The position numbers were made by a program. From a virus (lineage: Duplodnaviria; Heunggongvirae; Uroviricota; Caudoviricetes): a DNA stretch of 24,304 nt. This document shows, piece by piece, positions 21,001 through 24,000 of the stretch. Where the stretch lies: IMG/VR virus record IMGVR_UViG_642979322_000003; one strand, 5' to 3'. Within the stretch, counting starts at the first letter, position 1. Each line of letters begins with the position of its first letter.

Positions 21001-24000
21001 GATAGCGAGGCTGGGCCATTAATATATTCCGCACGCTATCTCGGAGGCACGTTCCGGCGCGGAGGTATAGCAGTTAGTCCGGGTAATGATCTTAGGCAAG
21101 CAACCCACTGGATGTCGCTACCAGAACCGCCGCAGGAGGTGAATCAATGACCTGGCCTGAAGCATTCACAACGGTAGGAATTGCGATGGCGGTGGCGCTG
21201 GTGGTGTATTCGATTTGCCGCTGGGGATAAAAACGGTTTGCGGGAAAAGGATAGTTAAGTAGAATTGCTGCGGGTGCTTGAGGCTATCTGCCTCGGGCAT
21301 GAACACCAACGGCAGATAGAGAAAAGCCCCAGTTAACATTACGCGTCCTGCAAGACGCTTAACATTAATCTGAGGCTCAATCCATGCTGAACACATGTAG
21401 GTTAGCCTCTTACGTGCCGAAAGGCAAGGAGAAGCAGGCTATGAAGCAGCAAAAGGCGATGTTAATCGCCCTGATCGTCATCTGTTTAACCGTCATAGTG
21501 ACGGCACTGGTAACGAGGAAAGACCTCTGCGAGGTGCGAATCCGAACCGGTCAGACGGAGGTCGCTGTCTTCGTAGACTACGAATCTGAGAAGTAAGAGA
21601 CCAGGCGGGGGAGTAATCTCCCGCCACCTCTGATGTGTCAGGCATCCTCAACGCACCCGCGCTTTACCATACTGAAAATGCTGTTTGAATGTTCATCTCT
21701 GAAAGAGGACTATGAATGAAAAAGGTATTGATTGCAGCACTTATTTCCGGTGTGTCTTTTGGCGCTTTTGCACAGCAGGGTGGTTTCCAGGGGCCAGAAG
21801 CAGAGCGTTCAACAGTAGCGCAGGCAAAAGAACTGAAGGATGATGCATGGGTTATCCTTGAAGGGAGCATCGTTAAAAAAGTGGGTGATGAACGTTATGA
21901 GTTTCGTGACAATAGCGGGACAATTGTCACGGATATTGATGACAGCGTATGGGCCGGGCAGAATGTTTCTCCGAAAGACAAAGTAAGAATTGAGGGTGAA
22001 ATTGATAAAGACCTGAGCAGTGTTGAAGTTGATGTAAAGGCACTGAAATTATTAAAGTAACCGCCCCTGCTTGTTAAGCCCGTCTTACTGACGGGTTTTC
22101 TGTTTGTACATTCCGGCGTATTGCCTTACAATTCGCGCAGTCAGCCTGAACAACTGACACCTGCTGTCACCGGAGAATCCGATGACACAACACATAAAAT
22201 CCCACAATTCTGAAGCCGACCCGGAAATTAAGCAGGGGAGGCGTTTTCGTGCGCCTCAGTATGGCTGGTTTCACTATCTGTTCTGTACGATCGATGAGGC
22301 AGATATGCTTCAAGAGGCGTATCTGCGTCGCGGTGTCCGTGTGGAGCGGAGTCTGAACGCTGATCGTCTGACCTGGACCGTTTCTGTATATCTTCCTGTT
22401 CGTGCACATCTGCCACGGACACATGCCTGCTACCGTCAGCGCGTCTGGAGGTAATGTGCGGGTATTACTTCGACCTGTTCTGGTTCCGGAACTCGGGCTG
22501 GTGGTCCTTAAGCCCGGTCGTGAATCATTGCCAGTTTTTCATCGCGGCAGGGTGCTGGTGGAGCCGGAACCGAAAAACATGCGGGCGCTGCCATCTGGAG
22601 CGGTTCCTGCTGTTCGCCAGCCGCTGGCGGAAGATAAATCACTGCTGCCATTTTTCAGCGATGAGCGGGTGATTCGTGCAGCTGGCGGCGCTGGTGCACT
22701 GTCTGACTGGTTATTACGTCACGTGAAATCCTGCCAGTGGCCACACGGCGATTATCATCACAGCGAAACCGTTATTCACAGTTACGGTGCTGGCGCAATG
22801 GTGTTGTGCTGGCACTGCGACAACCAGCTGCGCGACCAGACCTCCGAATCACTTGAGCAACTTACTCAACAAAATCTGACAGCCTGGATGATTGACGTCA
22901 TACGCCATGTAATGAATGGCACGCAGGAGCGGGAATTATCGCTGGCTGAATTATCCTGGTGGGCAGTCTGCAATCAGGTGGTGGACGCATTACCTGAGGC
23001 AGTATCGCGTCGCTCTCTGGGATTACCGGCGGAAAAAATCCGCTCCGTATACCGTGAAAGCGACATCATACCGGGAGAACAGACCGCCACCAGCATACTG
23101 AAGCAGCGCACAAAAAATATTGCGCTACCGCCTCACACCCACCAGCAACAGAACCCACCACAGGAAAAGACGGTGGTCAGCATTGCCGTTGATCCGGAGT
23201 CTCCGGAATCCTTCATGAAACGACCTAAACGTCGCCGCTGGGTAAATGAGAAATACACACGCTGGGTAAAGACACAGCCGTGTGCGTGTTGTGGTAAGCC
23301 AGCGGACGATCCTCATCATCTGATTGGTCATGGTCAGGGCGGAATGGGAACAAAATCCCACGATATTTTCACGCTACCGCTGTGTCGGGAGCATCACAAC
23401 GAGCTTCATGCGGATCCGCTGGCGTTCGAAGAAAAGCATGGTTCCCAGGTTGATTTAATTTTTCGTTTTCTTGATCACGCCTTTGCAACCGGCGTGCTCG
23501 GGTAAAAGAGGTTACTGATGCGTATAGAGTTTGTTTTGCCTTACCCGCCGACGGTGAACACCTACTGGCGACGTCGTGGCAGCACATATTTTGTATCAAA
23601 AGCCGGTGAGCGTTATCGCCGGGATGTGGCACTTATTGTTCGCCAGCAGCGGCTGAAATTAAACCTGTCCGGAAGGCTGGCGATAAAGATTATTGCAGAG
23701 CCACCGGATAAGCGCCGTCGTGACCTGGACAATATCCTGAAAGCACCACTGGATGCGCTGACGCATGCCGGACTTCTCATAGACGACGAGCAGTTTGATG
23801 AAATCAATATTGTGCGCGGCTAGCTCGTTTCTGGTGGGCGGCTGGGCGTGAAGATTTACAAAATTGAAAGTGAGTGAGCATAAATATGATATACCCGGAA
23901 ATTACAGGCAAAAGCGGTGAGCATTTACGCCTGAAAACGCTGGAAAGTGTCTGGATCCAGGGGAAACTGCGTATGTGGGGGCGTTGGTCGTATATTGGCG

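Follow-up and report, generated by a model that had tools for sequence, protein, structure and literature searches.

A hok/sok-family locus of the hokW/mokW/sokW type in a lambdoid prophage of Escherichia coli O157:H7, with its predicted RNA switch and antisense promoter

Identity of the locus and its prophage setting

The stretch of viral DNA analysed here (IMG/VR record IMGVR_UViG_642979322_000003; 24,304 nucleotides (nt) in its entirety, hereafter the window) carries, at approximately 21238–21658, what is very probably (with a probability of roughly 0.93) a complete type I toxin–antitoxin module of the hok/sok family, a textbook type I toxin–antitoxin system. More precisely, the region appears to be the hokW/mokW/sokW allele that is found in the Shiga toxin (Stx) phages 933W and Sp5. 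Over its full length, the window matches E. coli O157:H7 chromosomes at 100% identity. Positions 21240–21720 are 99.4% identical over 481 nt to the hokW/mokW/sokW locus of phage 933W, which has the same strand orientation and for which the GenBank record (AF125520) annotates mokW, hokW and sokW. The same interval occurs at an identity of at least 99% in 526 E. coli records, and a recognisable form of it is present in 4,716 of 5,426 complete genomes.

Inside the functional unit, the window differs from 933W by just three substitutions, which are located at 21252 in the hok promoter spacer, at 21349 in the loop of the Sok hairpin and at 21604 in the 3′ stem. All three lie outside the coding sequences (CDSs), the Sok promoter and the Sok stems, and the G at position 21604 of the window forms a ninth base pair of the 3′ stem relative to 933W. 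Correspondingly, the two sequences have the same HokW CDS, MokW CDS and Sok promoter. Near-identity to the 933W and Sp5 locus, together with shared flanking genes, places the window copy in the hokW/sokW allele group of lambdoid (Stx) phages, though the upstream CDS differs. The hokW/sokW system is already known: its annotation dates from the 933W genome record and its experimental test from 2021, and the locus offers no biological novelty. Its annotation can be improved, as the RefSeq records with the exact window sequence annotate only the 51-amino-acid (aa) Hok CDS and leave mok and Sok unannotated; base-level positions are now available for the two of them.

The locus is situated in a lambdoid prophage, within its early-right (nin) region, and the genes there are arranged as follows: cI-like repressor, cro, O/P-like replication genes, the insertion sequence (IS) IS1203, DUF4014, DUF551, hok, a YgiW/BOF-like gene, DUF968, RusA and a Q-like DUF1133 gene. 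The hok gene is co-oriented with cro, O, P and the Q-like gene, against which the Sok promoter is directed. The approximate limits of the functional unit are derived from the homologues, which become alignable near the −10 hexamer of the putative hok promoter and diverge a few bases past 21658. Similarity to IncY-plasmid loci spans 21260–21658.

The HokW toxin and the mokW reading frame

The toxin gene hokW (21441–21596, plus strand) encodes a 51-aa protein and corresponds to the hokW CDS of 933W. An earlier note on this DNA had taken this open reading frame (ORF) for a Hok/Gef toxin, and the profile searches bear this out: the ORF matches the Pfam family HOK_GEF (PF01848) with an E-value of 4.3e-23 and a score of 81.1 bits (cut-off 22) over 42 of the 42 profile positions. 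The RefSeq entry for the toxin is WP_000813258.1, a Hok/Gef family protein. The hok start codon is preceded, at a distance of 9 nt, by the Shine–Dalgarno (SD) sequence AAGGAG (21426–21431). Takada et al. (2021; PMC8621323) observed that the 51-aa HokW ORF of the Sp5 copy is toxic upon expression, and that Sp5 HokW is localised to the membrane.

Homologous loci were gathered in a comparison set of 47 Hok-relative loci, with one genome for each species, together with the R1-type plasmid, IncY plasmid and K-12 hokC loci. From these, an alignment (A2) was made of 32 non-redundant loci with an intact leader, which derive from Escherichia, Kluyvera, Citrobacter, Pantoea, Photorhabdus and plasmids.

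The in-frame upstream extension from 21384, which had also been described earlier, is present in the list of ORFs as a 70-codon frame (21384–21596, plus strand) and is equivalent to the annotated mokW of 933W. Its SD sequence, GAGG (21372–21375), lies 8 nt upstream of the ATG at 21384. As mok is in frame with hok, translation from 21384 would yield a 70-aa protein containing all of Hok, and the 70-codon frame might accordingly be the real toxin, an N-terminally extended Hok, in place of a leader for translational coupling. In-frame mok sequences also occur in the hokC-type and Photorhabdus loci, and K-12 mokC is annotated in the same manner. An extended toxin is nevertheless improbable in the light of the homologues. 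The upstream ATG is kept in 29 of the 32, either 57 nt before the hok ATG, and thus in frame, as in the window allele, the hokC-type loci and the Photorhabdus loci, or 58 nt before it and in the +1 frame, as in the R1, IncY-plasmid and Kluyvera types, where the mok product is unrelated to Hok. Furthermore, hok has an SD sequence of its own and the 51-aa ORF is toxic by itself (PMC8621323). Judged from the aligned sequences, the conserved feature is the mok start site and its overlap with hok, not an extended protein, which would fit a coupling role for mok.

The sokW antisense RNA and its promoter

The antitoxin of the module is sokW, a 71-nt antisense RNA whose position on the minus strand (21392→21322) is transferred from the misc_RNA feature sokW of 933W. 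The two sequences are identical at 70 of 71 nt and differ at position 21349, in the hairpin loop. The window sokW is predicted to fold into a single-stranded 5′ tail of approximately 14 nt, a long interrupted hairpin and a UUUU tail, with a folding energy of −30.0 kcal/mol (z −5.0). Its span covers both the mok SD sequence and the mok ATG (21372–21386). The earlier note had predicted a Sok-like RNA on the minus strand near 21380–21450, and that interval does contain the promoter, the start at 21392 and the first 13 nt; the body of the RNA runs further left, to 21322.

The Sok promoter consists of a −35 hexamer, TTGCCT (21427→21422, minus strand), and a −10 hexamer, TAACCT (21404→21399, minus strand), each of which is aligned in all 32 homologues. 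The spacer between them is 17 nt long, and the start of sokW at 21392 is 7 nt downstream of the −10 hexamer. Both hexamer positions and the 17-nt spacer are kept in 32 of 32 homologues, with a degenerate −10 in the hokC-type loci.

Experiments on the Sp5 copy by Takada et al. (PMC8621323) demonstrated that this promoter drives the antitoxin. Changing the plus-strand sequence TAGGTTAG to CCGGCTCG destroys the Sok −10 hexamer, abolishes antitoxin activity and restores toxicity, while the locus is harmless as long as its own promoter drives sokW. Supplying sokW in trans gives a partial rescue of growth, and RNase III and Hfq contribute as well. Sp5 sokW was seen by northern blotting with a plus-sense probe that is identical to positions 21363–21392 of the window; similarly, the hokW/sokW primers used in that study match the window, one of them with the 933W base at 21604. 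The earlier note had named the absence of an antisense promoter or transcript and a lack of toxicity as results that would speak against a hok/sok locus, and for the Sp5 copy both questions have been answered in its favour (PMC8621323).

The leader and the predicted closed form of the mRNA

A putative hok promoter can be discerned on the plus strand, with a weak −35 hexamer TTGCGG (21238–21243) and a −10 hexamer TAGAAT (21260–21265); it was not called by a consensus scan. A −10-like hexamer is also found 6 nt from the conserved GGG(U/C)GC 5′ end in the R1-, IncY- and hokC-type loci and in the Photorhabdus loci, and the sequences further upstream are unrelated. The predicted start of the hok mRNA is at approximately 21272. 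There, the element tac (GGGUGCUUGAGG; 21272–21283, plus strand) would form the 5′ end of the mRNA, a placement that draws on the start of the match to Rfam family RF01794 and on pairing in the minimum free energy (MFE) structure. Its partner, fbi (CCUCAACGCACCC; 21646–21658, plus strand), contains one bulged C and is presumed to form the 3′ end of the full-length mRNA.

In the predicted MFE structure of an RNA spanning 21272–21660, the two ends are paired with one another, and the folding energy is −162.6 kcal/mol compared with −119.5 ± 6.2 kcal/mol for dinucleotide shuffles (z −7.0). The tac/fbi duplex comprises 12 pairs at −21.5 kcal/mol, compared with −12.4 ± 2.7 kcal/mol for shuffled fbi sequences. 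Fold-back control of the hok type had been proposed in the earlier note on the strength of a structured leader, and both the tac/fbi pairing and the RF01794 match agree with it; the interval that had been delimited, 21240–21630, omits fbi.

Adjacent to tac is a 9-bp inverted repeat, formed by CTATCTGCC (21284–21292) and GGCAGATAG (21311–21319) and lying, like all the other features listed in the earlier note, within 1–2 nt of the positions first reported. In both the full-length MFE structure and the RNAalifold consensus, it forms the predicted 5′ hairpin of the closed mRNA (21284–21319, plus strand). A rival local hairpin (21274–21284 with 21290–21300; −18.4 kcal/mol) is contained within the 5′ 29 nt, is predicted to form without fbi and competes with the 9-bp repeat. 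Further into the leader, the anti-SD element ucb, GCCCCAG (21326–21332, plus strand), is paired in the MFE and RNAalifold structures with CUGAGGC (21370–21376), the region of the mok SD sequence. The resulting stem encloses the complement of the Sok hairpin (21326–21376), and three of the four bases of the mok SD sequence have an unpaired probability of ≤0.02 in the closed form. By analogy with the model for plasmid R1 (PMC9841398), the role of ucb would be to sequester the mok SD sequence. A different segment, AGCCUCUUAC (21404–21413), was considered as ucb and dropped, as GCCCCAG at 21326–21332 is ucb and AGCCUC corresponds to dcb according to PMC9841398.

Covariation in the homologue alignment

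RNAalifold, when applied unguided to alignment A2, recovers tac/fbi, the 9-bp repeat hairpin, the ucb/SD hairpin and the 3′ stem-loop. Pairing of tac with fbi is recovered between the first six bases and the last six conserved bases. The variable pair of this helix (4/425) is U-A in 18 loci, C-G in 12, U-G in one and a mismatch in one. Further along the helix, covariation continues in a shifted register, with the combinations GAGG/CCUC, GAGA/UCUC and GAAG/CUUC. The helix at columns 13–20/58–65 contains eight of the nine repeat pairs; its pairing stands at 99.6%, and in two of the pairs both bases have changed. Helices 3 and 4, which correspond to ucb/SD, display swaps between AU and GC at columns 77/117, 80/113 and 81/112. 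In the consensus structure as a whole, 97.1% of cells are paired, compared with 37–47% when the partners are slid. Seventeen pairs have double changes, a number reached by none of 500 shuffles. The closed structure is thus supported by covariation, and the features listed exceed what is expected by chance.

The 3′ stem-loop and the putative open form

Downstream of the hok stop codon is a 3′ stem-loop (21604–21625, plus strand) with 9 bp, including one G-U pair, a GUAA loop and no T-run. Its fold has an energy of −18.8 kcal/mol (z −4.6), and all 32 homologues retain it, with substitutions in both arms of the stem (helix 13). The GC hairpin without a T-run that had been noticed after the stop codon is therefore present, and is presumed, by analogy, to be a block to 3′ exonucleases that ends the processed mRNA, not a terminator. 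In the R1 model of Le Rhun et al. (2022; PMC9841398), tac/fbi pairing closes the full-length mRNA with the mok SD sequence paired to ucb, a transient 5′ hairpin blocks translation of the nascent RNA, and the last stem-loop shields the processed RNA from 3′ exonucleases. Correspondingly, mutations that weaken the equivalent 3′ stem of R1 cause a loss of function (PMC9841398).

In the open mRNA, the mok SD region GAGGCU (21372–21377) is predicted to pair with dcb, AGCCUC (21404–21409, plus strand). A local fold of 21360–21415 forms this stem, and the role of dcb is assigned from the R1 model (PMC9841398). The GAGGCT/AGCCTC pair and the 9-bp inverted repeat had been reported together as features of a single leader; both are real, and they appear to belong to alternative conformations, the former to the open mRNA and the latter to the closed one. 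Constrained folding places the open form, with tac/ucb and SD/dcb paired, 4.4 kcal/mol above the MFE for an RNA truncated at 21627 and 18.3 kcal/mol above it for the full-length RNA. In these models, the open form becomes affordable without fbi, which agrees with a switch and is no proof of the refolding pathway. All segments needed for an R1-type switch are present in the window.

Proposed mechanism and biological role

It is proposed that a weak promoter gives rise to an mRNA of approximately 387 nt, extending from 21272 to about 21658, in which the first 12 nt (tac) would pair with the last 13 nt (fbi) and lock the molecule in a closed form. In this form, the mok ribosome-binding site (GAGG, 21372) would be paired to ucb (21326–21332), and this pairing would shield the mRNA both from translation and from binding of the antisense RNA. 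As the 3′ end is slowly trimmed as far as the GC stem-loop at 21604–21625, fbi would be lost, after which the 5′ end would refold and free the mok start, with translation of hok coupled to that of mok. SokW, produced as a 71-nt RNA from its own minus-strand promoter with a start at 21392, would pair with the processed mRNA around the mok start, and this pairing would block translation and lead to cleavage of the duplex. Should the supply of Sok stop, the pool of stable mRNA would be translated, and the 51-aa Hok would insert in the inner membrane and kill or lyse the cell. The transcript ends, the 3′ processing, the refolding pathway and the coupling of mok to hok are inferred in this scheme from the R1 paradigm.

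For the Sp5 prophage, Takada et al. reported that mitomycin C treatment leads to loss of sokW and production of HokW in a way that depends on RecA, and that, when the hokW/sokW locus is removed, lysis comes later and half as much phage is released (PMC8621323). The 933W record (AF125520) suggests a role in prophage maintenance, and a survey found hok to be enriched in prophages (bioRxiv 10.1101/2025.08.07.668861).

The gene order of the window, which is the sole basis for the two ideas that follow, invites a tentative explanation of Sok loss. Upon induction, antiterminated early sense transcription might silence the convergent Sok promoter through transcriptional interference, or might titrate Sok with sense RNA; this is a possibility to which we give rather less than even odds. 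If true, it would explain the RecA-dependent removal of sokW and release of HokW, a step that was left open by Takada et al. Furthermore, because O157 genomes carry between five and seven Sok-like genes, it is conceivable that silent prophage copies such as that of the window, which is one loop base away from Sp5 sokW, could buffer or delay the release of Stx-phage HokW in trans. Such cross-talk among the near-identical copies of enterohaemorrhagic E. coli would bear on the timing of Stx-phage release.

Weighing the assignment

Several points weigh against the assignment of the window locus as a complete, operating module. The NCBIfam Hok models match the toxin below their curated cut-off (53.6, where 73 is needed). 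A consensus scan of 21100–21800 on both strands for promoters and terminators returned no sigma-70 promoter and no terminator. The minus-strand promoter search that the earlier note had suggested therefore gave no call, a false negative in that the scan misses the Sok promoter because the −10 hexamer TAACCT has only 3 of 6 positions in common with the consensus; it is likewise too strict for the Sok terminator, the stem of which has internal mismatches. The promoter placement therefore rests on homology and on the published mutagenesis. A predicted long-range helix between CUCUUAC and GUAAGAG (21407–21413 with 21591–21599) has no pair changed on both sides and, because it is almost invariant in the 32 loci, lies beyond covariation testing, which neither supports nor refutes it. 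In the truncated RNA, the MFE structure departs from the open form of R1 type and shows a local 5′ hairpin instead, at low confidence and within a diffuse ensemble (MFE frequency 0.0002). The window copy itself is known from its sequence, and the RNA and protein data come from the Sp5 copy. Finally, the host prophage has signs of decay, with IS1203 inserted approximately 1 kb upstream and with int and recE both truncated, and because of this decay the biological role established for Sp5 may not necessarily apply to the window copy.

Taken further, the same decay could mean that the locus is a non-functional relic in which the toxin is never made and Sok is irrelevant. The surrounding prophage carries fragments of IS1203, IS66 and IS256 besides the truncated int and recE, and decay is common in the family: K-12 hokC has lost its fbi to IS186, K-12 hokD has no mok/sok leader, and the hokD-type loci L010, L011, L030 and L043 are without a tac leader. 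Such a relic is very unlikely in view of the state of the unit itself. There are no insertions or deletions in 21238–21658, and every element is kept, including the promoters, tac, ucb, the mok SD sequence and ATG, dcb, the hok SD sequence and CDS, the 3′ stem and fbi. These elements are identical or nearly so to those of the experimentally active Sp5/933W copy, and the three substitutions spare coding and pairing positions, with the G at 21604 adding a base pair. IS1203 ends at position 20235, at least 1 kb upstream of the unit.

The covariance search proposed in the earlier note gave a clear match to Rfam family RF01794, "sok antitoxin (CssrC)", at 21272–21446 on the plus strand, over the full model (1–157) and with a score of 113.5 bits (gathering score 59; E 1.8e-25). 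The minus strand yielded only a partial match of 12.5 bits. The consensus of RF01794 extends from the hok mRNA 5′ end (GGGUGCUUGAG) to the hok SD sequence and AUG, and on this comparison of sequences the model marks the sense-strand hok leader, not the 71-nt antisense RNA. That the family name should be taken literally, with a 175-nt sok RNA on the plus strand at 21272–21446 and no minus-strand RNA, is favoured by the difference in score between the strands and is hardly credible, given that the consensus coincides with the sense leader, that 933W sokW is annotated on the opposite strand, that the plus-sense Sp5 probe hybridises only to minus-strand RNA (PMC8621323) and that mutation of the minus-strand −10 hexamer abolished the antitoxin effect (PMC8621323). 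The hok/sok assignment with a minus-strand sokW is thus retained, and annotation pipelines that copy the RF01794 family name would mislabel both the strand and the size of the antitoxin. Other weak Rfam matches in the region, among them a Caenorhabditis small nucleolar RNA model (E 0.026), were set aside as chance.

Comparison with known relatives

The closest relatives, 933W (AF125520) and Sp5/VT2-Sakai, share with the window the location in the nin region and the co-orientation with the early-right operon. They also have the same neighbours, namely a 27-aa ORF upstream (81% aa identity) and the YgiW/BOF-like gene downstream, but a different upstream CDS. The window locus differs from them in that it resides in an IS-ridden prophage, not an inducible Stx2 phage.

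The hok/mok/sok locus of plasmid R1 shares the order of elements, comprising tac/fbi, the 5′ hairpin, ucb/mok-SD, dcb and the 3′ stem-loop. Its Sok promoter (TTGCGC/TATCCT, compared with TTGCCT/TAACCT in the window) is in the same place and has the same 17-nt spacer. In contrast, R1 Hok and window HokW are only 44% identical (PMC8621323), and the mok start of R1 lies 58 nt before that of hok, in the +1 frame, whereas in the window the distance is 57 nt and mok is in frame. Further differences in the window are a leader that is approximately 4 nt shorter, an extra inner Sok stem (GCGUC/GACGC) and the bulged C in fbi; the setting of R1 is a plasmid and that of the window a prophage.

The hokC (gef)/mokC/sokC locus is similar in its Hok protein (80% identity) and in-frame mok, and the K-12 MokC frame starts MLNTCR. 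The hokC-type loci have the tac sequence GGGUGCUUGAGG and, in those Escherichia species that retain fbi, the fbi core CAACGCACCC, both of which are shared with the window. They differ in a shorter Sok-target hairpin and in the degenerate Sok −10 hexamer. In K-12 hokC (L005, 16300–17400), IS186 is inserted 20 bp beyond the stop codon, and an fbi can no longer be recognised downstream. Among the K-12 proteins compared, the closest relative is that of hokD (relF) from the Qin prophage, at 92% identity, which is also prophage-borne. The hokD-type locus of E. coli ECDA1023 (L011) is without the tac/mok/sok leader, whereas the window has the full regulatory apparatus.

Records that are not from enterobacteria also contain Hok sequences 91–100% identical to the E. 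coli type, on tiny contigs assigned to Acinetobacter idrijaensis (L017, 275 bp) and Xanthomonas pisi (L025, 431 bp) and at a further locus (L052). Similarly, a record named Actinobacillus phage vB_Apl-pPE4 (PP818812.1) has an E. coli-type Hok and the 27-aa ORF at 100% identity. Contamination or mislabelled hosts are the likeliest explanation for these records.

Neighbouring features

The 27-aa ORF mentioned above is unannotated in the window (21147–21230, plus strand; 27 codons). It encodes MTWPEAFTTVGIAMAVALVVYSICRWG, a hydrophobic sequence with a length that would suit approximately a single membrane span. The start codon of the ORF shares an ATGA with the DUF551 stop codon, so that the two overlap, and its end is located 8 nt upstream of the hok −35 hexamer. 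Searches of Pfam and NCBIfam gave no family match. By tblastn, it was found in 90 phage records at 59–100% aa identity, following varied genes (DUF551, EaA and Ea22-like), which suggests from sequence comparison that it is a real and mobile gene for a small membrane protein.

Downstream of hok/sok is a gene of the YgiW/YdeI-type bacterial OB-fold (BOF) family (21716–22060, plus strand; Pfam BOF, E 1.9e-33). The consensus scan detected no terminator between fbi and this gene, and the BOF gene also accompanies hok/sok in 933W and other Stx phages.

IS1203, of the IS3 family, occupies 19022–20235 on the minus strand within the nin region and contains the frameshift pseudoknot ALIL at 19838–19954. 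In strain PV15-279 (L001, 3285–4498), the same IS abuts a truncated integrase gene next to rspB. The left arm of that prophage is gone, from the rest of int through the immunity and replication regions to the first nin genes, in an arrangement that looks like an IS-mediated deletion sparing hok/sok.

Elsewhere in the same prophage, the immunity region contains a full-length match to the small RNA DicF (12698–12749, minus strand; 75 bits, gathering score 48), which is not annotated in RefSeq. It lies approximately 175 nt upstream of dicB (12335–12523, minus strand).

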